64,000 nt of DNA from an uncultured bacterium (GTDB lineage Bacteria; Patescibacteriota; Minisyncoccia; UBA6257; 2-01-FULL-56-20): assembly GCA_963807165.1 (NCBI GenBank), contig CAWDZM010000001.1:32214-96213 (forward strand). Direction: 5' to 3'. The translations under genes were made by a program, and so were the position numbers. Positions 3,880 to 64,000 of this stretch are shown here, piece after piece. The notes under the pieces are model-generated. The model had not been told where the DNA came from. It did no database searches and worked only from the letters and a program-made list of their open reading frames with translations. The number at the start of each line of letters is the position of its first letter. Position 1 is the first letter of the stretch.

Positions 3880-5413
3880 ATGCTCCAATCCACCGCCCTA
3901 GCCCTGCTCAAAACGGGCGAGAACGTATTCCTGACCGGCGCGCCGGGCGCGGGGAAGACGTACGTCCTCAATCAATATATCGATTTCCTGAACCAGTACG
4001 AGGTGGAGGCGGCCGTCACGGCGTACACCGGGATCGCGGCGAGCCACATCAACGGGCGGACGCTCCATTCGTGGGCGGGGCTGACGCGCGGGCCGATGCA
4101 CGAGGACGCGCAGGAGGTGGATCGCGTGCGGGCGAATGAGTATCCTGACCGACCGCATCCGCCGCGCGCGGGTGCTTATTATAGACGAGATCAGCATGCT
4201 GCATCCCGCGCAGTTCGATCGCGTGGATCTGATCTGCCGCACCGCGCGGAATTCGCACGAGCCGTTCGGCGGATTACAGCTCATCTGTTGCGGCGATTTC
4301 TTTCAGATCCCGCCGGTGAACGGCGAGAGTGAAAAGTTTGTGATCGACTCCGTCGCGTGGAAGAACGCGGACATGCGCGTGTGTTATCTGACGGAACAGC
4401 ATCGGCAGGCGGGTGCCGTCGATGGGAGCGGTGTTTCAAGCAGCGGCGAACTCTTAGAGATTCTGGACGCCATCCGCGCGGGCGCCGTGACGCCGGCGGT
4501 CGTTGCCGCGCTCGACGCGCGTATCGGAGCGGCGATCGATGCGCCGATCGGCATCGCGCGACTCTACACCCATCGCGAGAATGTGGATGAGATCAACGCC
4601 GCGGAACTGCGCAAGCTCGCGACACCGGACGTCGTCTACGACGCGTACCAGAGCGGCCCCGCGGCGCTCGTCGAAAAATTAAAAAAAGATAACGACGTGC
4701 CGGACAAATTCGTTTTAAAGATCGGCGCGCGCGTGATGTTTACCAAAAATAATATGGGCGCGGGATACGTGAACGGCACACTCGGCGAAGTGATCGGGTT
4801 TGAGAACGGGGGAGATGGGAACAACGGCGAGTCGGTGGGTAAAAATGCCGCTGGTGCACCAATGCCGCAAACCGCCACCGAAGCGAACCCCGTCATTATG
4901 ACGTTTGATAAAAAGAAAATAACCCCAGGCCGCTTTCAGTGGAAAGTGGAGGAAGGCGGCAAAGTACGCGCGAGCGTTTCCCAGCTGCCGCTCAAACTCG
5001 CGTGGGCGATCACCGTGCACAAGAGCCAGGGGATGACGCTCGACGCCGCCGTGATCGACCTTGGCCGCGCCTTCGACCGCGGCATGGGCTATGTGGCGCT
5101 CTCGCGCGTGCGCGAGCTTAAGAACATCTCCTTGATAGGCTTCAACGCCGTTGCTCTGCAAGTGAGCCCGCGCGTGCAATCGCTCGACGCCGGCTTCCGC
5201 GCCTCCTCGCGGCGCGCAGAGGACGACATTGCCGCGCTCCCCGCCGACGAACTGCGCGCCGCGCAGAGCGAGTTCATCCGCCGCGCGGGCGAGGAGTCGG
5301 GCCCGAAAGGCCATTCTGCGACAGCCGGCCATGAGGCCGGGGCCGGCACTGTCTTTGACGACCTGCGCATTGACTACACCGACATCGACGAAATGCCCGT
5401 GGCGGATTTTTGA
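3880..5413 (+). CDS. PIF1/RecD-like superfamily 1 helicase, split by a +1 frameshift near 4125-4140
   Basis: Walker A GAPGAGKT. Motif II LIIDEISM and GGLQLICCGDFFQIPPV sit in the second frame. C-terminal ITVHKSQG and GYVALSRV motifs. GC-rich. Two track ORFs (3880-4332 and 4136-5413) join into one helicase. Confidence 0.7.
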
Positions 5414-22087: not shown

Positions 22088-22166
22088 GGGATTTAGAAAA
22101 ACACCCTCTTTTTTCACCTAGTGATAAGAATCAACGGTGAAAAAAGAGGGTGTTTTTCTAAATCCC
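22088..22166. terminator. 31-bp perfect inverted repeat (AT-rich stem, ~17-nt loop) downstream of the PCD gene
   Basis: Arms GGGATTTAGAAAAACACCCTCTTTTTTCACC / GGTGAAAAAAGAGGGTGTTTTTCTAAATCCC are exact reverse complements. Acts as a bidirectional terminator-like hairpin. Confidence 0.5.
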
Positions 22167-24996: not shown

Positions 24997-25437
24997 TTGC
25001 TTTTATCAGCGACCGCCGTTTTACTTAAAAAAATGAAGATGGTATATATATATATGAATATGGAAAAGATAAACTCAACATTCGAATCAGAGCCAGATTC
25101 AATCGATATCGAAGATCCTGAAACGGCGCGGGAATTTATTCGTCAACGCATGGAAAAAGATGGAGATTTGCCGACCGTAACAGTTCCGATGGAATATGCC
25201 GAAGAAGCACGCAAGGGAATTGTGCCTCATACCACATGGATATATGACGCGCTCATTGCTGGTACACTAGGAAAGAAGCCTTATATGCCAGACAATTCTC
25301 CTCGAGCTTTATTTCGTATTAAGGCAAAACCCGAAGATGTGATGCCGCGATTCACTGGCCCTGATAAGCATTTTCACGGGGTGGTGGTATTCAAAAAACC
25401 TATCGCTCCAGACTTACTCGAAGAAGTGTACGCATAA
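24997..25437 (+). CDS. hypothetical protein (start uncertain, possibly 25034 or 25054)
   Basis: ORF track. Low GC. Confidence 0.35.
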   Translation: MLLSATAVLLKKMKMVYIYMNMEKINSTFESEPDSIDIEDPETAREFIRQRMEKDGDLPTVTVPMEYAEEARKGIVPHTTWIYDALIAGTLGKKPYMPDNSPRALFRIKAKPEDVMPRFTGPDKHFHGVVVFKKPIAPDLLEEVYA

Positions 25438-25467
25438 AAAAATCGCTCCTCAAGAGCGATTTTTTTA
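25436..25467. terminator. bidirectional intrinsic terminator between convergent genes
   Basis: ATCGCTC-CTCAA-GAGCGAT hairpin flanked by an A-run and a T-run. Confidence 0.55.
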
Positions 25468-25476
25468 TGAACGTTA

Positions 25477-30216: not shown

Positions 30217-30221
30217 AGGTA

Positions 30222-30263
30222 AAAACAAAAGCCCCACCTTTTAAAAGGTGGGGCTTTTGTTTT
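30222..30263 (+). terminator. intrinsic terminator (AAAACAAAAGCCCCACC-TTTTAAAA-GGTGGGGCTTTTGTTTT)
   Basis: 17-bp arms plus T-run. Shares the GCCCCACC/GGTGGGGC arms with the hairpin at 35549-35670. Confidence 0.7.
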
Positions 30264-30291
30264 TGTATACTTTTAAAGTACACTACAGAAA

Positions 30292-35405: not shown

Positions 35406-35544
35406 GGATCAGGAAGAGATCGATCTTGAAGAGGCGTTAGTGAAGATCCGCGAAGCGGGGGAGTTGATCAAGTTGAGCAAAGATCGTTTAACGGAAGTGG
35501 AGAACGAATTCAAGGAAATAAAGACAAAGATAGAAGCGGAATAA
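35311..35544 (+). CDS. xseB: exodeoxyribonuclease VII small subunit
   Basis: 77 aa with LEEALVKIREAGELIKLSKDRLTEVE coiled-coil, typical of XseB. Confidence 0.8.
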   Translation: MAKTTKQSAAGQKPHDLKKYLEDIKQISDWFEDQEEIDLEEALVKIREAGELIKLSKDRLTEVENEFKEIKTKIEAE

Positions 35545-35548
35545 AAAA

Positions 35549-35670
35549 AGCCCCACCTCTTAAAAGGGCGTCTCGGAGCCGCGAAGGCGGCGAGAGCCGA
35601 GGCGGCCGGTCAGCAGCCGCGACTCTTAGGAGTCCCGCGGGAGAACGCCGTACCTTTTAAGAGGTGGGGC
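35549..35670. repeat. GC-rich ~86-nt structured element (35567-35652) in the loop of an 18-bp AT-rich terminator hairpin; copy 1 of a 3-member family
   Basis: Arms GCCCCACCTCTTAAAAGG / CCTTTTAAGAGGTGGGGC are exact reverse complements. The insert is ~90% identical (reverse complement) to 54388-54470. Confidence 0.6.
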
Positions 35671-35681
35671 TTTTGTTATTA

Positions 35682-36263
35682 CTACTTTGTATCTTTATCG
35701 CGCGCTACCTTCAACGCATCTGCCCACCAGATGAGCTGGTCGAGCATCATATCGGCGTTTGCGTCGAATGACTCCGTTTTCAATATTCCTTTTTCATCCA
35801 GCATGCTCCATGGGTTGACCATGTGCACCGCGGTGCGGATGGAGACCATCTGCTGTTCGGCGACGACGGGGCGCAACTGATCGACGGCGCGTGCAGCACC
35901 GACCGTGCCGTATCCCACGAACGCCACCGGCTTCTTGTGCCACTCCTTTCCGACATAATCGAATGCGTTCTTGAGTACCGCAGGGTATCCATGATTATAT
36001 TCCGCTACGGTAAAGATGAAGCCATCAGCTTCGCCGATCTTTGCGGTCCATTGCGCTGAGATCGGATACGGGTATGCGCCTTCTTTCATCGCCGCCATCA
36101 TCGGCGACATCGCTTCATTAAAGAGGGGGAGCGGGTAATCGCGCAGATCCAATAACTCCACATCCAATCCTTTTGTTTTTGCCTTTTCAACAATCCACTT
36201 TGCCGGCTGTTCGCCGAACCGATTCTGCCGCGTCGTCCCGAGAATAACTTTTATTTTTAACAT
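35682..36263 (-). CDS. NADPH-dependent FMN reductase family flavoprotein
   Basis: KIKVILGTTRQNRFGE N-terminus. Flavodoxin-like fold signature. Confidence 0.7.
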   Translation of the reverse strand: MLKIKVILGTTRQNRFGEQPAKWIVEKAKTKGLDVELLDLRDYPLPLFNEAMSPMMAAMKEGAYPYPISAQWTAKIGEADGFIFTVAEYNHGYPAVLKNAFDYVGKEWHKKPVAFVGYGTVGAARAVDQLRPVVAEQQMVSIRTAVHMVNPWSMLDEKGILKTESFDANADMMLDQLIWWADALKVARDKDTK

Positions 36264-41379: not shown

Positions 41380-41692
41380 GGAGTGGAATAACGATGGAAT
41401 GCTTTATCATTGTACAATCTACCACGATTAATGGATAGAAAAAAGGACCGGCGTCGCCGGTCCTTGGATAATGATTGTGAGGATGATAGCTACCCCGCTC
41501 GTTTGGAAAAGATCGAACCAATTGCCCGGAAAAAGCGCAAGATAGTTCTTTTGATGGGGACAACGATCTCCAGTTGTTCGTTCAAATCGTCGAAGAGTAT
41601 GTGATTTCGATGGTGTGCCAAAGCAATTTCTCTTTTCCACAGATGCTCTCACTGTTATAGCACGTTCACATTAAAAAAAGATAAATAAAAAA

Positions 41693-41721
41693 TGGGCAGT
41701 TCGCTGTGTGCGAACTGCCCA
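41693..41721 (-). terminator. intrinsic terminator GGGCAGTTCGC-TGTGT-GCGAACTGCCC plus T-run; repeat copy 1
   Basis: Perfect 11-bp stem. Near-identical copy at 42925-42952. Confidence 0.55.
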
Positions 41722-42859: not shown

Positions 42860-42924
42860 ATGAAACCTCCTTCGATTCCGGAGGAATGATAATATAAAAA
42901 ATTGTAAGCGTCAACGATAAAAAA

Positions 42925-42952
42925 TGGGCAGTCGCGGTGTGCGAACTGCCCA
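42925..42952 (-). terminator. intrinsic terminator; repeat copy 2 of the GGGCAGT(T)CGC hairpin
   Basis: GGGCAGTCGC-GGTGT-GCGAACTGCCC plus T-run on the minus strand. Confidence 0.5.
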
Positions 42953-45303: not shown

Positions 45304-45346
45304 ATCAGTATTTTAAAATCACAAATTGTGATTTTAAAATACTGAT
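45304..45346. repeat. 43-bp near-perfect palindrome ATCAGTATTTTAAAATCACAA-A-TTGTGATTTTAAAATACTGAT; copy A
   Basis: Exact reverse-complement arms seen directly. Lies between convergent glycosyltransferase and recG. Confidence 0.6.
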
Positions 45347-47681: not shown

Positions 47682-48077
47682 ATTTAAAGCATAGATGTAC
47701 TATGGATAACAGTAATAAATTCCCAAGGAGAATGCCTCTGAAGAATCCCTTTGAAGTGATATTCTTTAGCCTCTTGACTTGACCTGCCGGCGGCGACCGC
47801 ACGGATGCGGACGCCCAGTGCCGAGCGATGCTCGGCGAGAAAAGATAGCGGCACGCCTGCCGCGATTCACCAGCCCGGACCACTCCCAGGAGGAATCCAT
47901 GCATTGTGATTACGGCTAACAGCGGTACCACAATTCAAAATCAGTCACCTTTTGCGGCGCACTAAACGGCGCGCGACTCTCCCGAGTCCGCGCCGTTCCT
48001 ATTTCTATAATTAAAAAAATCGACGCGCCTCGTATGGGTGGTGCGCCGATGGGGTGGTGATAAATGTTAGAGCTGGA

Positions 48078-49153: not shown

Positions 49154-49184
49154 ATTCTGAAATCACAAATTGTGATTTCAGAAT
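49154..49184. repeat. 31-bp palindrome ATTCTGAAATCACAA-A-TTGTGATTTCAGAAT; copy B
   Basis: Shares the core AAATCACAAATTGTGATTT with copy A. Outer arms covary. Confidence 0.6.
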
Positions 49185-52254: not shown

Positions 52255-54358
<2,104 letters not shown>

Positions 54359-54369
54359 GGGGAAGAAGA

Positions 54370-54488
54370 GATAACAAAAAGACCCATATACTTCGGGGAC
54401 GGCGTTCCAGCCTGCTGGCTGGCCGCCTTGGCTCTCAGCGCCTTCGCGCTTCCGAGACACCCCTCAGCACATGGGTCTTTTTGTTATC
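54370..54488. repeat. GC-rich 83-nt element (54388-54470) in the loop of an 18-bp AT-rich hairpin right after the fusA stop; copy 2, inverted relative to copy 1
   Basis: Arms GATAACAAAAAGACCCAT / ATGGGTCTTTTTGTTATC are exact reverse complements. Insert matches reverse complement of 35567-35652. Confidence 0.6.
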
Positions 54489-54511
54489 TTCAGATATTTG
54501 GGGAATAATTT

Positions 54512-54584
54512 GCCCTCGTGGTCCAATGGATAGGGCGTCTCGCTTCTAGCGAGTACGATGCGGGTTCAACTCCTGCCGAGGGCG
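54512..54584 (+). tRNA. tRNA-Arg (anticodon TCT)
   Basis: Acceptor GCCCTCG/CGAGGGC, D-arm GTCC-AATGGATA-GGGC, loop CTTCTAG, T-arm GCGGG-TTCAACT-CCTGC. Confidence 0.8.
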
Positions 54585-54611
54585 CGGATTCTGAAAGTGA
54601 GTATAAAATAT

Positions 54612-54640
54612 AAAGACGTCTATAAAAAATAGACGTCTTT
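54612..54640. terminator. bidirectional terminator AAAGACGTCTA-TAAAAAA-TAGACGTCTTT
   Basis: Perfect 11-bp inverted repeat between the tRNA-Arg (+) and GIY-YIG gene (-) 3' ends. Confidence 0.5.
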
Positions 54641-54656
54641 ATTATGTCCACCCTAC

Positions 54657-55203: not shown

Positions 55204-55986
55204 ATGCCAAGTTTCAACGATCTAAAATTGGAGGATTGGAAAAATTCAGAAATCTGGACCGATAGTCTCTGGATTATTTCTGAAAGAGATAAAAGCGGGA
55301 AACACGATGGGTTTTACCACGGGAATTTTGTCCCTCAAATTCCTCGTCAATTAATTTCTCGCTATACAAAGGAAAATGAAGTTGTATTTGATCCATTTGT
55401 AGGAAGTGGTACAACCGCTTACGAAGCCGAAGAGCTGGGTAGACATTTTATCGGGGTAGATATCCAATCCAAGTTGATTAAATATATTAGAGAGAAAGTT
55501 GATGACAAGAAGTTTTTTTCAGAATTGATTGTTGGTGATAGTTCAGATGAAAACATTATCTCTACGATTTCTGATATTTTAAAAAAGAAGAAGAAAAGAA
55601 GTATTCACTTTGCGATATTGCATCCACCGTATGCCAATATCATTAAATTTAGCAATAACAAAGCAGATTTATCCAACGCAAAATCATTAAAGGATTTTCT
55701 CGATAGATTTTCTCTAGTTGTTAAGAATACGGTTTCTTTATTAGAAAAAAATCGATATTTAGCGGTCGTTATTGGGGATAAATATCAACAAGGGCAGTGG
55801 GTTCCGCTCGGTTTTTACTGCTTAAATGAGGTGCAGAAGCAAGGATTAACTTTAAAGAGTATAATTATAAAGAATATGGAAGGGAATAGGGGGAAGCAAA
55901 ATAAGGAGGGCATCTGGCGCTATCGAGCGCTATCGAGCGATTACTATATTTTTAAGCACGAATATATTTTTATATTTAAGAATTAA
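55204..55986 (+). CDS. N6-adenine/N4-cytosine DNA methyltransferase with permuted motif order (FxGxG before DPPY-like)
   Basis: Motif I FDPFVGSGTTAYEAEELGRHFIGVDI at residues ~70-95. Motif IV ILHPPY at ~136. Low GC. Confidence 0.7.
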   Translation: MPSFNDLKLEDWKNSEIWTDSLWIISERDKSGKHDGFYHGNFVPQIPRQLISRYTKENEVVFDPFVGSGTTAYEAEELGRHFIGVDIQSKLIKYIREKVDDKKFFSELIVGDSSDENIISTISDILKKKKKRSIHFAILHPPYANIIKFSNNKADLSNAKSLKDFLDRFSLVVKNTVSLLEKNRYLAVVIGDKYQQGQWVPLGFYCLNEVQKQGLTLKSIIIKNMEGNRGKQNKEGIWRYRALSSDYYIFKHEYIFIFKN

Positions 55987-55990
55987 AGTC

Positions 55991-56896
55991 GTGAGCGATA
56001 TCAAGGATCAATTGTCGGTGGTACTAGCGAAAAAGATTTTTGGAAATTCCAAGGTTGCGTTGGAATATTTAAAGCGACTGAATACTATCAAGGAAATTAA
56101 TGGCATCACAAGTAGAACTCTTACGCGCGGAGTTCGTGTGGGGTTGGAGGTGCTGGGTATCAATGCAGATAAAGATATCTGGCAAATAGTTGTTGAAAGC
56201 TGGGACTATGAATCTAGCAAAAAGATTATTCGAGGTATATTTAAGGAGGGAAATAAGTATAGGGTGGGAGTGGAAGCGGATGTGGCGATGGGAATTCTTA
56301 TTAAAGAGTGGGAAGCGTTGAGTTTGGGTAAAATCGAATGGCCATTCTCTCAGGGGGATTTTGATGGCTTTGTTCAGGGAATTAATAATTCTAGTAATGA
56401 ACTTGGGGTAATTAAGGATGAAAAAGTAAAAGCGGCGGCGGTGAAATATCGAAGAATTAAAGAAATTAATACTGTCAGAAACGATTTTATAGAGACTTTG
56501 ATTTTTGAAAAAAATGAAAATATTATTCCGACTCTAAGCCATCGAAGGGGAGTCGACTTCTTTATCGACGGAGTTCCTTTTGACCAAAAAGTTGCAAAAA
56601 GTCCAACAAATCAATTTAAAGTAAAATTCGGTGATGATTGGAAAAATGAGGCAATAAAAAATCCAGCATTAGTTGCTGAATATTTATATAAATATCAAGA
56701 CGAGGGTCGTTTCGGTGCTGATCCGCGCTTGCTTGTCGTTTATTTAGATGAAGATATTTCCATACAAAAAATTAGAGAAATTTTAGGGAAGATTGACCTT
56801 AGTGATCCTATGGAAATTCAATTTGAATTTAGCCACGAAGTCGGAGGGGCCAAAAACTATAAAACAAAATGTTTTGTAATACTGCTTCATAATTAA
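55991..56896 (+). CDS. putative type II restriction endonuclease (PD-(D/E)xK-like) between two methyltransferase genes
   Basis: Position within the R-M cassette. Candidate catalytic stretch RRGVDFFIDGVPFDQKVAK (D...D.K). GTG start. Confidence 0.35.
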   Translation: MSDIKDQLSVVLAKKIFGNSKVALEYLKRLNTIKEINGITSRTLTRGVRVGLEVLGINADKDIWQIVVESWDYESSKKIIRGIFKEGNKYRVGVEADVAMGILIKEWEALSLGKIEWPFSQGDFDGFVQGINNSSNELGVIKDEKVKAAAVKYRRIKEINTVRNDFIETLIFEKNENIIPTLSHRRGVDFFIDGVPFDQKVAKSPTNQFKVKFGDDWKNEAIKNPALVAEYLYKYQDEGRFGADPRLLVVYLDEDISIQKIREILGKIDLSDPMEIQFEFSHEVGGAKNYKTKCFVILLHN

Positions 56897-56906
56897 CACA
56901 CAATAT

Positions 56907-57974
56907 ATGAACTATATCGGGAGTAAATTATCTCTACTAAATTTTTTAGAAACATCCATCGATTCTGTTACCAAGGGAGAGCAGAAGACATTTTTAGATC
57001 TTTTTGCTGGCACCGGTGCGGTTGGTCTCCATTTTAAAAAGAAGGGGTACAAAGTCTATGCTAACGATTTGCAATATTATAGCTTTGTTTTAAATCGCCA
57101 TTATATAGGTAATCATAAGGAAATGGAGTTTGAGGGATTAGCAAATATAATCCCAGGAATAACGAGTGCTAAAAAGAGCGATAAAAAAAATCTTGTGTGT
57201 GAGTATTTGGGTTCGATAAAAGGAACAAAAGGATTTATTTATAAGAACTATTGTCCGGGAGGCACGGTCAATAGTTCGGTCCAGAGATTATATTTTTCAG
57301 ATGAAAATGGAATGAAATGCGATTCAATCAGGCAGAAAATTGAACAATGGAAAAAGAAATTACAGATTACAGATAATGAATATTACTTTCTTCTCGCTTC
57401 ATTATTAGAATCGATCGATAAACATGCTAATACCGCATCGGTCTACGGTGCTTTTTTAAAAAAAATAAAGAAGTCGGCTCTTAGGCCAGTCGTTTTAAAG
57501 CCAGCGAATTTATTTATTAATGACCATGAACATAAAGTGTTTAATGAAAATATAAATACTTTGGTAAAAAAAGTAAGCGGAGATATTTTATATCTTGATC
57601 CGCCATATAACCAGAGACAATATGCGACCAATTATCATATACTTGAAACTATCGCAAGATACGATAATCCTAAAATTCACGGTAAGACAGGATTGAGAGA
57701 TTATAAATCTCAAAAGTCTTTATACTCTTCGCGTCCCCAGGTTAAAAAAGCTTTTAGAGAACTTATATCAAACGCAAAAGTTAAATATATCTTTTTGAGC
57801 TATAACAACGAAGGGTTAATGACTATGCAAGATATAAAAGAGATTATGGGCACGAGAGGGGAATATGGTTTCTTTGCTCAGAAATATGGGCGTTTTAAAG
57901 CCGATAAAGATTCAAACCGGGGATACAAAGATAATAAAACAACTGAATATCTCCACTATGTTGTTTGTAAATAA
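56907..57974 (+). CDS. Dam-like (alpha-class) N6-adenine DNA methyltransferase
   Basis: MNYIGSKLSLL...FLDLFAGTGAVG N-terminus (motif X/I) and ILYLDPPYN motif IV, the D12-class architecture. Confidence 0.8.
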   Translation: MNYIGSKLSLLNFLETSIDSVTKGEQKTFLDLFAGTGAVGLHFKKKGYKVYANDLQYYSFVLNRHYIGNHKEMEFEGLANIIPGITSAKKSDKKNLVCEYLGSIKGTKGFIYKNYCPGGTVNSSVQRLYFSDENGMKCDSIRQKIEQWKKKLQITDNEYYFLLASLLESIDKHANTASVYGAFLKKIKKSALRPVVLKPANLFINDHEHKVFNENINTLVKKVSGDILYLDPPYNQRQYATNYHILETIARYDNPKIHGKTGLRDYKSQKSLYSSRPQVKKAFRELISNAKVKYIFLSYNNEGLMTMQDIKEIMGTRGEYGFFAQKYGRFKADKDSNRGYKDNKTTEYLHYVVCK

Positions 57975-58196
57975 AAAGAGTATCCTGGATCTGACTTTTT
58001 CCGCGCACTTGATGTTGTAGGCGCTAGTAATATAATTTATTCGTTCCTTGAAAGCTGACGGGGATTGGCTTGGGCCCTTCTTTTATTCTTGGACTAAATC
58101 TCCTTTATCCCCCCTCGGTAGTCGCTTCTGGCGATTGCCGCGGGGGCTGGTATAAAGGTTGAACAGTCCCGAGTAATAAACTAATCCTAAGCGACC

Positions 58197-58373
58197 ATGG
58201 CTAAACCTATTGTTGTAAAGACGGGTGGTAAGGTTCCGGTTTCGGGGCAGTACCGTCCGTCAGGCGGGAAAACGGAGGGCACCTTCACAAAAGGTGAACG
58301 CGTTCCGCCGAACAACGTTGGCGTGCGTCAATCTTGGACTTTGGTCGACAAGACCAAACACAAGGGCGACTAA
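58197..58373 (+). CDS. possible 58-aa small protein (GC-rich, Gly/Lys-rich)
   Basis: ATG...TAA ORF, MAKPIVVKTGGKVPVSGQYRPSGGKTEGTFTKGERVPPNNVGVRQSWTLVDKTKHKGD. Below the track size cutoff. Confidence 0.2.
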   Translation: MAKPIVVKTGGKVPVSGQYRPSGGKTEGTFTKGERVPPNNVGVRQSWTLVDKTKHKGD

Positions 58374-58645
58374 TCGCTAGCGTACCTCCTCGTCAGCTTT
58401 TAGGGAATATTTTATTTTTTCCACAGTCGTCTGTGCTACACTGATTCTACAACCGAATAGCCCATCAAGAGAGTGGAGATGCTAAGGGATCTGGCCCGAT
58501 GCTCCGCCCGCAACCGATCGACGATTCGACACGGTGCGAAATCCAACCCTTCACGGGGAAGATGCTTCTTTATCTCAACTGCCGTGTAGGCGGTTGTTTT
58601 TTTGCTCTTTTGCCGGCTGGAGATTAAAACCTTATTAAAAGAGTT

Positions 58646-58674
58646 TTGACTTTGGTGCTGGGCGGGCGGACAAT
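58646..58674 (+). promoter_or_regulatory. sigma70-like promoter TTGACT-17 nt-GACAAT, 6 nt upstream of ATG 58681
   Basis: -35 at 58646-58651 and -10 at 58669-58674. Leaderless geometry. Confidence 0.4.
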
Positions 58675-58680
58675 GATGCT

Positions 58681-59538
58681 ATGGCAAAGAAAAAAGCGAA
58701 GCAGAATACTCATCCAACGATCTTTGAAGAGAAAGAGGTTCGAAGGGTGTGGCGTAACGAAAAGTGGTATTTCTCTGTTTCTGACGTGGTGCAGGCGCTG
58801 ACCGATTCGAATGATGTGCGGCAGTATATAAAAAAGATGAGAACGCGTGATGCGGAGCTGTCTCGCAACTGGGGTACAATTTGTACCCTGGTTCAAATAA
58901 CCTCAAAAGATGGTAAAAAGCACGAGGAAAATATGTCGGATATTGAAGGCATCTTCCGTATCATTCAATCTATCCCTTCCCCGAAGGCCGAGCCATTTAA
59001 GCGTTGGCTTGCCAAAGTTGGCAAAGAAAGAATCGAGGAAATAGCGGATCCTGAGTTGGCGGTGACGCGGGCTAAAGAGATCTACGACAAAAAGGGATAT
59101 CCCAAAGATTGGGTTGATAAGCGCATGCGTGGCATTGCCGTTCGGAATACGCTTACCGACGAATGGAAATCGCGGGGAGCGTCGATGCGTTTTGAGTTTG
59201 CGATTTTAACCGACGAGATTTACAAGGCGGCGTTCGATAAAACCGCGAAAGAATACATGAAGCATAAGGGCTTGGATAAAAAAGCGGGTGATAATTTGCG
59301 CGACCATATGGGCGACATCGAATTGATCCTGACGATGCTTGGAGAAGCTACGACAACCAAGCTCAGCACGGAAAAGGATTCGCATGGATTGGAAGCGTTA
59401 AAGAAAGATGCACGCGTCGGGGGAAGCGTTGCCGGCAGGACTCGAAAAGATATCGAACAGCAAACGGGCAAAAAGGTAATTTCAAACGAAAATTTTAAGA
59501 ATAAGAAGCTTCTGAAAGGTAAAAAAATTCGCAAATAA
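58681..59538 (+). CDS. Bro-N-domain protein (phage antirepressor/DinD-like)
   Basis: YFSVSDVVQALT...IPSPKAEPFKRWLAKVGKERIEE matches the Bro-N consensus. The C-terminus resembles DinD. Confidence 0.65.
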   Translation: MAKKKAKQNTHPTIFEEKEVRRVWRNEKWYFSVSDVVQALTDSNDVRQYIKKMRTRDAELSRNWGTICTLVQITSKDGKKHEENMSDIEGIFRIIQSIPSPKAEPFKRWLAKVGKERIEEIADPELAVTRAKEIYDKKGYPKDWVDKRMRGIAVRNTLTDEWKSRGASMRFEFAILTDEIYKAAFDKTAKEYMKHKGLDKKAGDNLRDHMGDIELILTMLGEATTTKLSTEKDSHGLEALKKDARVGGSVAGRTRKDIEQQTGKKVISNENFKNKKLLKGKKIRK

Positions 59539-62567: not shown

Positions 62568-63767
62568 ATGGCAGAAAAAGAAAAGTTCGACCGGTCCAAG
62601 CCGCACCTTAACGTAGGTACGATTGGCCACGTCGATCATGGCAAGACCACGTTGACCGCAGCGATCACCCACGTGCTCTTTATGAAGGGCTGGATCAAAA
62701 AAGAAGAGAATGTTTCACAGATCGACAATGCTCCGGAAGAGAAGGCGCGTGGTATCACCATTGCGTTGCATCACTCGGAGTACAACTCGGAGAAGCGCCA
62801 CTACGCGCACGTTGATGCTCCGGGTCACGCCGATTACATCAAGAACATGATCACCGGTGCCGCCCAGATGGACGGTGCAGTGCTCGTCGTTGCAGCGACC
62901 GACGGCCCGATGCCGCAGACCCGCGAGCACATTTTGCTCGCCCGTCAGGTAGGCGTGCCTTCGATCATCGTGTTCCTCAACAAGTGCGACATGGTGGATG
63001 ATCCGGAATTGATCGACCTCGTGGAGTCCGAAGTTCGTGAGCTCCTCACGAAGAACGGCTTCCCAGGCGACACTGCTCCGGTGATCCGCGGTTCGGCGCT
63101 CAAGGCGTTGAACTCGACCGATGCTGATTCCGCAGATGCCAAGCCGATCCTTGACCTCGTCAAGGCGATGGACGACTTCTTCCCGGATCCGGTTCGTGAA
63201 CTCGACAAGCCGTTCCTTATGCCTGTTGAAGATATCTTCTCGATCGAAGGTCGCGGTACGGTCGTCACGGGACGCATCGAGCGCGGCATCATCAAGGTGA
63301 ACGATGAAATCGAAGTCGTCGGCCTTAAGCCGACCGCAAAGACCGTCGTCACCGGTATCGAAATGTTCAACAAGAGCTTGGATCAGGGCCAGGCAGGCGA
63401 TAACGCAGGTTTGCTTCTCCGCGGTCTCAAGAAAGAGGACGTAGAGCGCGGACAGGTGTTGGCCAAGCCGGGCACGGTGACCCCGCACTCGGAGTTCGAG
63501 GGCGAGATCTACGTGCTCTCGAAAGAAGAGGGTGGCCGTCACTCTCCGTTCTTCAAGGGCTACAAGCCGCAATTCTATATCCGTACCACGGACGTGACCG
63601 GAGAGGTTACGCTTCCGGAAGGAATGGAAATGGTCATGCCGGGTGATACCGTCAAGATCACCGTCAAGCTCATCACCCCGGTCGCTTTGGAAGACAAGAT
63701 GCGTTTCGCCATCCGCGAGGGCGGCAAGACCGTCGGCGCCGGCGTCGTGACGAAGATCATCAAGTAG
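62568..63767 (+). CDS. tuf: elongation factor Tu
   Basis: [18 protein letters not shown] and NKCD motifs. 399 aa. Confidence 0.95.
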
Positions 63768-63872
63768 CAATATAAAACCGCCTTACGGGGACGGGTCGCG
63801 TTCTACTGAACGCGCTCTAACGCTCGGCACCTACGTGCCTCCGCGATTCCCCTTAAAGGCGGTTTTATATTG
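63768..63872. repeat. GC-rich 71-nt element (63785-63855) in the loop of a 17-bp AT-rich hairpin right after the tuf stop; copy 3, same orientation as copy 2
   Basis: Arms CAATATAAAACCGCCTT / AAGGCGGTTTTATATTG. Insert starts CGGGGACGGGTCGCGTTC and ends TCCGCGATTCCCCT, similar to the ends of copy 2. Confidence 0.5.
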
Positions 63873-63972
63873 CTTATATTTTTAATGTTCAGTCACGACG
63901 CCGGCGTCTCTGGAGATATGAGGAGGGATCAGACTAAGGTCGCATTTCAGAAGAATATAGAATCTTGTTACA

Positions 63973-64000
63973 TTCTAAAATCGCAATCTGTGATTTTAGA
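63973..64000. repeat. palindrome TTCTAAAATCGCAATCTGTGATTTTAGA; copy C, possibly cut by the window end
   Basis: Same AAATC(A/G)CAA..TGTGATTT core as copies A and B. Confidence 0.45.

Follow-up and report, generated by a model that had tools for sequence, protein, structure and literature searches.

Folded GC-rich inserts at the apices of 3′-end hairpins in Paceibacterota: copies of an apparently undescribed repeat family

Three AT-rich hairpins located after xseB, fusA and tuf in the window, i.e., the whole stretch of 64,000 nucleotides analysed here, carry a GC-rich insert in place of a short loop. This arrangement raises the question of what the inserts are: mobile DNA, a functional part of the transcripts that end there, or ordinary loops that look alike. 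CPR/Patescibacteria account for a very large, mostly uncultured share of bacterial diversity and have tiny genomes, and we know of almost no non-coding elements described for them. The three hairpins with their GC-rich inserts, initially noticed in a sequence-only reading, were confirmed at their positions by reading of the sites, by folding and by a covariance model. The features of the window are the following.

35540-35682: hairpin 1; core 35569-35651, 83 nt; element sense minus
35653-35682, minus strand: 5′ arm of hairpin 1 (element sense); inverted repeat 35540-35567/35653-35680, 28 nt, 96% complementary
35569-35651, minus strand: core copy 1; covariance-model match 35559-35661, 80.9 bits
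35540-35567, minus strand: 3′ arm of hairpin 1 (element sense), with a minus-strand T-tract
54369-54489: hairpin 2; core 54399-54459, 61 nt; element sense plus
54369-54398, plus strand: 5′ arm of hairpin 2; inverted repeat 54369-54398/54460-54489, 30 nt, 87% complementary
54399-54459, plus strand: core copy 2, canonical 61 nt; covariance-model match 54389-54469, 98.5 bits
54460-54489, plus strand: 3′ arm of hairpin 2, with a T-tract (GGGTCTTTTTGTTATCT)
63766-63874: hairpin 3; core 63791-63848, 58 nt; element sense plus
63766-63790, plus strand: 5′ arm of hairpin 3; inverted repeat 63766-63784/63856-63874, 19 nt, 100% complementary
63791-63848, plus strand: core copy 3, divergent 58-nt subtype; covariance-model match 63781-63858, 67.5 bits
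63849-63874, plus strand: 3′ arm of hairpin 3, CCCC...AGGCGGTTTTATATTGCT, with a T-tract
30221-30264, no strand assigned: coreless perfect palindromic terminator with loop TTTTAAAA; arms similar to those of site 1

Hairpin 1 lies where two convergent genes meet and runs in sense to the FMN-reductase gene on the minus strand (35682-36263, Pfam FMN_red), whose stop adjoins it: the 5′ arm begins at the TAG stop (35682-35684), and the 3′ arm holds, on the plus strand, the xseB stop TAA (35542-35544). Given these stop codons and the T-tract between convergent genes, hairpin 1 is predicted to be a bidirectional terminator. Homologues of this FMN reductase bear the name Paceibacterota, in keeping with a CPR bacterium of that group. 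The 5′ arm of hairpin 2 comprises the true fusA stop TAA (54372-54374), an A-tract and the inner P1 bases GGGG. The window fusA contains at least two apparent frameshifts, the assemblies being MAGs that derive in part from long reads, and the called ORF stops too early because of a frameshift; the C-terminus reads EQIIEGKKR*, in agreement with relatives. A tRNA-Arg(TCT) starts at 54512, 23 nt downstream of hairpin 2. The 5′ arm of hairpin 3 begins within the tuf stop TAG (63765-63767) and also includes inner P1 bases GGGG. The arms, first read as 17-18 bp, are longer, namely 28, 30 (87% complementary) and 19 nt plus inner pairs. All three hairpins are very stable on both strands (z = -8 to -10), none of 200 shuffles being equally stable. 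When the covariance model built from relatives was run over the 64-kb window with filters off, it returned these three sites only (98.5, 80.9 and 67.5 bits), the best background match reaching 11.9 bits (E = 0.47).

The core folds by itself into a compact three-way junction whose helix P1 runs on into the outer arms. In the orientation of site 2, all three inserts display this closing P1, a P2 hairpin and a P3 hairpin that an internal loop interrupts. Core length is exactly 61 nt, or 83 nt in one subfamily, and the consensus of the core reads (G/U)AC-GGCG-U(U)-[P2, 6-7 bp, loop UGCU]-(C)-CGCC-U-[YG]-G-[CKC]-UC- in the 5′ part and [5 bp]-CUUC-[5 bp]-UCC-[GMG]-A-[CR] in the 3′ part, where the Y:R pair covaries as U-A, C-G or A-U. 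Copy 2 is written ACGGCG-UU-[CCAGCC UGCU GGCUGG]-C-CGCC-U-UG-G-CUC-UC-[AGCGC CUUC GCGCU]-UCC-GAG-A-CA and differs from copies of other species by 2 or 3 positions. Copy 1 consists of the 61-nt module plus a 22-nt additional hairpin (TCTCCCGCGGGACTCCTAAGAG) on the 5′ side of P2, a variant that also occurs at loci L009, L015, L047, L050 and L054, i.e., in at least three other genomes. Copy 3 has junctions UAA and AUU and a CUAC loop in P3; its subtype is also present at the orthologous tuf 3′ site in L158-L164 and L166, with compensatory changes in P2. The identity between copies 1 and 2, initially put at about 90%, was measured at 82% (50/61 when the 22-nt insertion of site 1 is left aside, 40/48 over the 3′ part). 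The compensatory difference between them, GCCGC/GCGGC versus AGCGC/GCGCT, was found as described.

The conserved secondary structure proposed from that difference is borne out by a 62-sequence alignment, in which standard pairs fill 94.3% of the cells against 75% in shuffles and double-sided changes affect 25 of the 28 pairs. The observed measures were reached by none of 500 shuffles, and pairing falls to 33-53% in a control where partners are slid. The UC/UCC internal loop of P3 is unpaired and invariant in all 61 of 61 copies, while the CUUC loop of P3, the UGCU loop of P2 and the junction bases are nearly invariant. P2 accepts an extra hairpin (the 83-nt variant) and is fully lost in L038 and L061; since P2 is variable, expandable and losable, P3 is the constant part. 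Most cores are surrounded by a semi-conserved inner inverted repeat of ~10 bp, typically TTTGAAAGG...CCTTTCAAA, which varies, is tied to the orientation of the core in most copies and equals helix P1; these inner arms travel together with the core. The initial statement that the inserts lack terminal inverted repeats and target-site duplications consequently holds for the duplications and needs amending for the inverted repeats. On inspection, the junction and the P3 loop do not match the consensus of a K-turn or a hammerhead-like motif.

The building of a covariance model and the search of related genomes, as proposed along with the sequence-only reading, brought together 65 copies from ~20 Paceibacterota/Minisyncoccia assemblies, the window and its relatives included. 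A structure-aware scan of the first related loci gave 3 further copies with compensatory differences. Scanning 185,579 species genomes with the pattern GGCKCTCNNNNNCTTCNNNNNTCCGMGAC, which is strict and hence biased to the canonical subtype, returned 68 loci, of which ~46 are true copies hosted by Paceibacterota, Parcubacteria, Minisyncoccia or small "uncultured bacterium" MAGs. The other ~20 matches, in high-GC genomes, are attributed to chance, as they lack stem complementarity and their number is about that expected by chance. One assembly with a true copy carries the label Saccharibacteria. A covariance model (R1) built from 48 copies yielded 62 matches at E < 1e-3 in the ~470 kb of window and related loci, together with 3 additional copies at the tuf site of close relatives; many of these loci are orthologous, so that copy counts are not independent. 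The model also detected distant members in other Paceibacterota lineages (L087, L089, L119), some of them AT-richer. From the densities in the window and the loci, ~20-35 copies per 0.7-0.9-Mb genome are estimated by extrapolation. The core pattern had no match in the viral contigs searched.

At the gathering threshold, a scan of the whole window against Rfam 15 returned 6 tRNAs only. Scans of each site at E ≤ 10 gave only generic long-hairpin matches, such as mir-5984 (30 bits versus a gathering threshold of 95) and DUF3800-IV (28 versus 60.7); the families that fail to match at the sites include hammerhead, twister, twister-sister, pistol, hatchet, HDV-like and riboswitch models. No description of the element was found in the full-text literature on CPR structured RNAs, repeats, terminators and REPIN/RAYT systems. 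The comparison with Rfam, ribozyme models included, and this literature search thus agree with the initial impression that no described repeat class applies. Altogether, the GC-rich inserts at the three window sites are copies of one dispersed repeat family, apparently undescribed, for which we propose the signature ACGG...P2(UGCU loop)...CKC-UC-5 bp-CUUC-5 bp-UCC-GMG-AC within a long palindrome, a signature that the window sites fit.

The location of the copies with respect to genes was analysed with neighbouring genes called by our own crude codon-usage model and tRNAs called by ARAGORN, which replaced longest-ORF calling and its spurious overlaps. A same-strand gene or tRNA ends at most 30 nt upstream of the modelled region in 33 of the 62 scored copies. 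The palindrome starts at or within the stop codon of the gene, or at the 3′ end of the tRNA, and the positions occupied include the 3′ ends of fusA, tuf, rpsF and ten tRNAs. The 3′ arm frequently pairs with the terminal bases of the tRNA or CDS, e.g., GCGCACCA of tRNA-Ile in L025. A derivation of the arm motif GGGCAC from tRNA 3′ ends is doubtful: the motif belongs to a real tRNA in L013 only, and no tRNA adjoins it elsewhere. All tRNA-adjacent copies, which involve nine different anticodons, are in sense (10 to 0, p = 0.002), and copies with co-directional neighbours are in sense by 23 to 11 (p = 0.06). The occurrence of copies in both orientations had been taken to argue for a DNA-level element; this argument does not stand, as site 1 proves to be sense to the FMN-reductase gene and the tRNA copies all lie in sense.

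At all three window sites, a stable hairpin followed by a T-tract lies directly downstream of a gene, as in intrinsic terminators, a property of the outer hairpin and not of the core. A T-tract is present in or after the 3′ arm in 23 of the 25 copies that abut a protein-coding gene versus 12 of 31 in other contexts (p = 6e-5). Because the palindromes that follow protein-coding genes have both A- and T-tracts, they are predicted to act as bidirectional intrinsic terminators of these genes. If the outer hairpin is the terminator of the gene, the module is in turn predicted to be transcribed, usually in sense, as the tip of the hairpin. Many copies after tRNAs or in divergent regions are devoid of T-tracts. 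There are ~8 copies between divergent genes and ~11 antisense to both neighbours; for the ~20 copies in divergent or antisense contexts that have no T-tract, a terminator role is unlikely.

Comparison of orthologous sites revealed cassette-like gain, loss, replacement, inversion and truncation. Polymorphism between filled and empty sites, which the sequence-only reading had suggested looking for in relatives, is clear at the fusA 3′ end: the element is present in the window, L033, L053, L065, L078 (divergent core) and L082 (expanded P3), and absent from L077 (the closest relative, 92% amino acid identity) and L079-L081. In the rpsF-ssb region, compared between four genomes, a first site is filled in L052 only, within a stretch of ~335 nt of additional DNA; all four carry an element at a second site, where the core of L018 is turned round between orthologous arms and that of L027 is half-deleted; and a third is filled in L027, L070 having neither arm. 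The empty allele lacks the whole hairpin, arms and core, in the comparison of L027 with L070 and in that for site A of L052, and the entire 125-nt hairpin of the L034 site is missing from the window and L007. At the site upstream of the TGT gene, plain terminators with differing stems are found in the window (30221-30264), L002 and L007, and only L006 has a core; but for the core, the hairpins that house it are ordinary terminators of the lineage. These sites qualify the initial view that the core was inserted into pre-existing terminator loops: the TGT-upstream site is as this view has it, but several empty alleles lack the whole hairpin and the inner arms move with the core. In the same way, the window terminator at 30222-30263, proposed as the empty form of site 1, does have arms in common with site 1 (86-89% over 28-39 nt) but is the orthologue of the filled L006 site and not the empty allele of site 1.

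The tuf 3′ end was compared among relatives with 95-96% identical EF-Tu; an exact look-up of the window EF-Tu itself found no recorded entry. Three core subtypes occupy it, i.e., the site-3 subtype (window, L158-L164, L166), the canonical one (L157) and the 83-nt one (L015), and in L165 and L167 it holds another hairpin with 32-nt arms and a 21-nt loop. The 3′ remnant of a window-like element persists downstream in L167, which indicates that part of one hairpin cassette gave way to another. Among these relatives the outer A- and T-tracts have been kept, while the inner stem and apex vary. Cores without a single difference are found at unrelated loci of different species-level MAGs (L033 = L016 = L062; L076 = L070; L039 = L025), whereas orthologous copies of the core do differ. 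Between the window and L158, P3 and the junctions at the tuf site are identical and the fourfold-degenerate sites of tuf are 76% identical. This turnover and the sharing of cores are the marks of a non-autonomous, cassette-like repeat.

The stems and arms also bear the imprint of a DNA-level process. RNA-selected helices usually accept G·U much better than A·C. In ungapped scoring, the outer arms contain 886 Watson-Crick pairs, 4 G·U and 7 A·C, and the non-canonical cells of the core helices are 16 G·U and 22 A·C. As an indicator of strand, these counts show no asymmetry and are uninformative. The near-perfect Watson-Crick pairing and the lack of a G·U excess imply that the palindromes either are young or have their perfection maintained at the DNA level. 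Equally perfect are coreless hairpins of this genome (22088-22166, 30221-30264, 25433-25469), and the perfection of the arms is therefore a trait of the hairpins of this lineage rather than of the core. The evidence on DNA versus RNA level thus points both ways. A second apex module, CGTAGGAACG, was also observed.

The search for a mobilising partner covered the flanks and neighbourhoods of the copies. The flanks outside the arms share no direct repeat. At site 1, the flanking repeats match with 0 mismatches as inverted repeats versus 2 as direct repeats, and a target-site duplication of the palindromic loop (CCTTTTAAAAGG) was rejected there since the flanks match inverted and not direct. No transposase lies beside the copies in the loci read, and no autonomous partner was seen; the DNA between paired copies (L052, L073) contains rpsF, ssb, a tRNA and spurious ORFs, and no transposase. 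Likewise, no Y1/HUH gene was seen in the ~64 kb window, itself part of a 726-kb contig, or the annotated related loci, which are pieces of 8-20 kb. GC skew is monotonic across the window, with site 1 and sites 2/3 on opposite strands of one replichore, so that the orientation of the element does not follow replication.

We take the element to be one of two things, a small mobile element or an RNA module of 3′ ends, and a new one in either case. The reading that we favour, to which we give about as much belief as doubt, is that the three inserts belong to a dispersed, non-autonomous repeat family of Paceibacterota (CPR) that resides, cassette-like, in the apices of terminator hairpins. The cassette would spread by a copy or replacement process acting on DNA, for which we infer two candidates: an enzyme acting in trans, or recombination anchored in the adjoining conserved gene. 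The latter would account for the hot spots after tuf, fusA, rpsF and tRNAs and for the mosaic of L167, but would not account for identical cores at unrelated loci. The differences in outer arms from copy to copy are not accounted for by any standard transposition mechanism. The cassette may persist because its compact fold would still allow the terminator to close, and it could even make AT-rich terminators stronger or lend stability to 3′ ends; a recognition surface for the copying or binding machinery would then be provided by the invariant loops. That said, the strong sense bias and the conservation of every unpaired nucleotide as far as the distant L087, L089 and L119 are no less consistent with a host RNA function than with selfish spread.

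The main rival, which we hold to be somewhat unlikely yet serious, is accordingly a 3′-end RNA motif of mRNAs and tRNA precursors that serves the host and is not primarily mobile. A conserved CPR protein would bind to such a motif, or the motif would act as a signal for processing or stability; its arms could form an RNase III-type processing stalk, or RNase Z could free the hairpin from tRNA trailers as a stable small RNA. It would be found in many copies since many transcripts need it, and gene conversion would maintain the similarity between copies. The bias towards the sense of abutting genes and tRNAs (10 to 0 for the latter) is what such a motif would show, as are the location after highly expressed translation genes (fusA, tuf, rpsF) and ten different tRNAs and the invariance of unpaired nucleotides over distant lineages. 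The tuf site speaks the same way, with P3 and junctions identical between orthologues in which 24% of the fourfold tuf sites differ, and with compensatory P2 changes in place. However, neither strand has G·U in excess of A·C, an unusual state for helices selected as RNA, and the element is dispensable at every site examined, the closest relatives being without it. The flipped core at an orthologous site (L018), the ~8 copies between divergent genes, the ~11 antisense to both neighbours and the identical cores at unrelated loci of different species also argue against a primarily host-serving motif.

It can be proposed more specifically, as an idea that is unlikely but has a real chance of being right, that the 61-nt junction is a new CPR-specific class of functional RNA, a self-contained and exchangeable 3′-end module of terminator and tRNA-trailer hairpins whose invariant, pyrimidine-rich P3 loops recruit a conserved protein that serves termination, processing or protection, or are catalytic. 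If this proposal is true, mobile terminator cassettes with interchangeable apex modules would be general in these reduced genomes.

A single-stranded-DNA element of the REP/RAYT or IS200/IS605 kind appears distinctly improbable. Here, the folded core would serve a hairpin-recognising HUH/Y1 transposase as substrate. Encoded once elsewhere in the genome, the enzyme would transfer the element, by cut-and-paste or by copying, into single strands exposed at the apices of hairpins or at transcribed 3′ ends, strand-specific insertion producing the orientation bias. A conserved structure made of Watson-Crick pairs only, symmetric between strands, would be in line with this, and so would the absence of target-site duplications and of long conserved terminal inverted repeats, which IS200/IS605-derived elements also lack, and the subfamilies common to several genomes (the 83-nt variant). 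There is also a precedent for insertion at such places, as the insertion sequence IS1397 targets REP loops. Nevertheless, the ~64 kb window and annotated related loci contain no Y1/HUH gene, orientation does not follow replication (opposite strands of one replichore), the REP signature (5′ GTAG, simple hairpin of 20-40 nt) is missing, and REPINs conserve the arms and vary the loop, which is the reverse of the element. A reading as a small ribozyme that cleaves itself, or as some other RNA within the 3′ hairpins that is catalytic or binds a ligand, is very improbable. It would be compatible with a compact three-way junction that has ~20 invariant unpaired nucleotides and freely covarying stems, and with the multi-copy, cassette-like occurrence that several small ribozymes share. 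Yet no Rfam ribozyme or riboswitch matches even at E ≤ 10, copies without P2 persist, G·U is not tolerated, and cleavage within a terminator loop would serve no obvious need. Neither the single-stranded-DNA nor the ribozyme reading has direct support. Finally, the notion that these are ordinary terminators with large loops, alike by chance or GC-rich composition, can practically be dismissed: the arms are indeed typical of the terminators of this genome, but covariance-model scores of 67-107 bits, where the best background match reaches 12 bits, 62 matches within a set of 65 copies, strong covariation, and the ~20 pattern matches of high-GC genomes that lack stem complementarity refute it.

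Whichever reading prevails, an element of 60 nt that is kept in an extrapolated ~20-35 copies, conserved at every unpaired base, represents a considerable expense for genomes of this size. If the element is mobile, a repeat conserved at the apex of a hairpin and not at its ends points to an unknown mechanism of mobilisation or recombination. As an RNA, the element would label the 3′ ends of tuf, fusA, rpsF and many tRNAs and would offer a testable route into CPR termination and RNA processing. In practice, covariance model R1 is a marker for a Paceibacterota subclade, and annotators should be aware that a long perfect palindrome with a large loop, when met in these genomes, is no assembly artefact.

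Among known systems, REP/REPIN and the MITEs that form hairpins (ERIC, Correia), if placed in terminators, come closest to the way the element works, although it departs from them in features that define them. Like REP/REPIN, it is short, structured, GC-rich, extragenic and present in many copies, mostly at gene 3′ ends where it is predicted to be transcribed with the upstream gene; it is likewise non-autonomous and persistent in its lineage, and the whole unit is a long hairpin of ~100-130 nt. In contrast, the arms of a REPIN (the REPs) are conserved while the loop varies, whereas here the apex is conserved and the arms are site-specific. A REP is a 20-40-nt imperfect palindrome with a conserved 5′ GT(A/G)G, whereas the core is a 61-nt three-way junction whose 5′ side has no GTAG in the alignment. 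REP/REPIN systems possess a single-copy RAYT (Y1 transposase) gene in the same genome, often with REPs on its flanks, while none is found among the annotated neighbours (64 kb and related loci of 8-20 kb), and no paper linking REPINs or RAYTs to CPR was found in the full-text literature. ERIC/IRU, Neisseria Correia/NEMIS, RUP and BOX are, like the element, intergenic repeats of ~100-150 nt that fold into long hairpins and have variants with internal insertions; they are co-transcribed with their neighbours, as is predicted for the element. Hairpin-forming bacterial MITEs can act on termination or mRNA stability. They have conserved terminal inverted repeats, whereas the element has only the semi-conserved inner repeat of ~10 bp; Correia elements show a TA target duplication and an IS-like origin, whereas no target-site duplication accompanies the element; and ERIC, Correia, RUP and BOX share no sequence similarity with it, its conserved part being the central junction.

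More distant parallels are instructive as well. Yeast mitochondrial GC clusters and Rickettsia palindromic elements are short GC-rich mobile hairpins in the AT-rich intergenic DNA of small genomes, for which no mobilising enzyme is known. The likeness is by analogy only, sequence and host being unrelated, and the in-frame insertions into genes that Rickettsia palindromic elements also make were not seen for the element. Integron attC sites, defined by R''/L''...L'/R' boxes with a GTTRRRY core site, differ in that the ends of the element show no GTTRRRY in the alignment, and in that attC sites lie in arrays of cassettes of one orientation next to intI, whereas the element follows housekeeping genes and tRNAs. 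Intrinsic terminators resemble the outer hairpin of the three window sites and of the 23 of 25 gene-abutting copies, in which a GC-containing stem lies between A- and T-tracts and starts at the stop codon; the usual loop is 3-8 nt long, whereas that of the element is a conserved folded module of 58-83 nt. A structured RNA within a terminator stem has a counterpart in the HMP-PP/thiS riboswitch, which PMC6478431 describes as a small structured RNA nested within such a stem. That riboswitch is a 5′-UTR regulator of one gene family, whereas the element is found at the 3′ ends of unrelated genes and tRNAs. On balance, the element is rated as belonging with the small structured intergenic repeats, among which it forms a family that is itself new.

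Perfect palindromes appear to be the usual terminator style in this genome, and several long hairpins in the window lack the core, the GC-rich three-way-junction module that occupies the apex of other terminator hairpins:

22088-22166, coreless palindromic hairpin, 31-nt arms, 100% complementary
25433-25469, coreless palindromic hairpin, 16-nt arms, 100% complementary
54610-54642, coreless palindromic hairpin, 14-nt arms, 100% complementary

Two terminator-like hairpins (AAAAATGGGCAGTTCGC...GCGAACTGCCCA) at 41688-41721 and 42919-42952, with 1.2 kb between them, are 79% similar, and this sequence resemblance suggests that duplication also affects plain terminator hairpins. There is also a nearly loopless AT-rich palindrome, TATTTTAAAATCACAA-TTGTGATTTTAAAATA, with 21-nt arms and a 1-nt gap, which together with its two related copies is found at the following positions and could be a protein operator or a further repeat family:

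45304-45346, AT-rich palindrome
49154-49184, AT-rich palindrome
about 63970-64000, AT-rich palindrome

In related loci from other genomes, a second apex module is recognized by the loop motif CGTAGGAACG, common to hairpins of L165 and L167 (2701-2790 in each) and of L052 (5330-5440), whose arms are perfect and measure 32 nt or 16 nt. In L165 and L167, it is this hairpin, instead of the core, that the tuf 3′ site holds. Downstream of the FMN-reductase gene of another relative (L006, 8506-8586), a hairpin with perfect 31-nt arms carries a 19-nt loop, ACGAGTCCGCTCGGCATTT, that includes the small hairpin CGAG-UCCG-CUCG and may represent a further apex module or a remnant. Within the window, a separate GC-rich hairpin at 47955-48060, AACGGCGCGCGACTCTCCCGAGTCCGCGCCGTT, lies inside a larger stem (GGCGCAC...GTGCGCC) and has GCGGACTC-N4-GAGTCGCG in common with the 22-nt insertion by which the element's 83-nt variant is defined.

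The fusA gene (region 52255-54374) is split into two ORFs:

52255-53121, first fusA ORF
53105-54358, second fusA ORF

The second ORF stops at the TGA at 54356-54358, and the conserved C-terminus, EQIIEGKKR*, runs on in a different frame up to the TAA at 54372-54374, implying at least two frameshifts, which are more likely assembly indels than signs of a pseudogene. Between fusA and tuf, immediately 3′ of tRNA-Arg(TCT), begins a low-GC island (55204-59538; 35-42% GC). Two of its genes encode DNA methyltransferases, one of the N6_N4_Mtase and one of the D12 class; together with a 301-aa ORF they probably make up a restriction-modification system, after which comes a gene for a Bro-N domain protein.

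In another Paceibacterota contig, L083, fusA is followed immediately by tandemly repeated units of roughly 95 nt (CCGAAGTCTCTCTTCGTTTTCGAAGTGAGACTTC...) at 4757-5000. Elsewhere among the relatives, copies of the three-way-junction element occur in pairs, inverted in L024 (694-931) and direct in L046 (2620-2945), with spacings of 80-165 nt across the two loci, an arrangement reminiscent of BIME or REPIN clusters.
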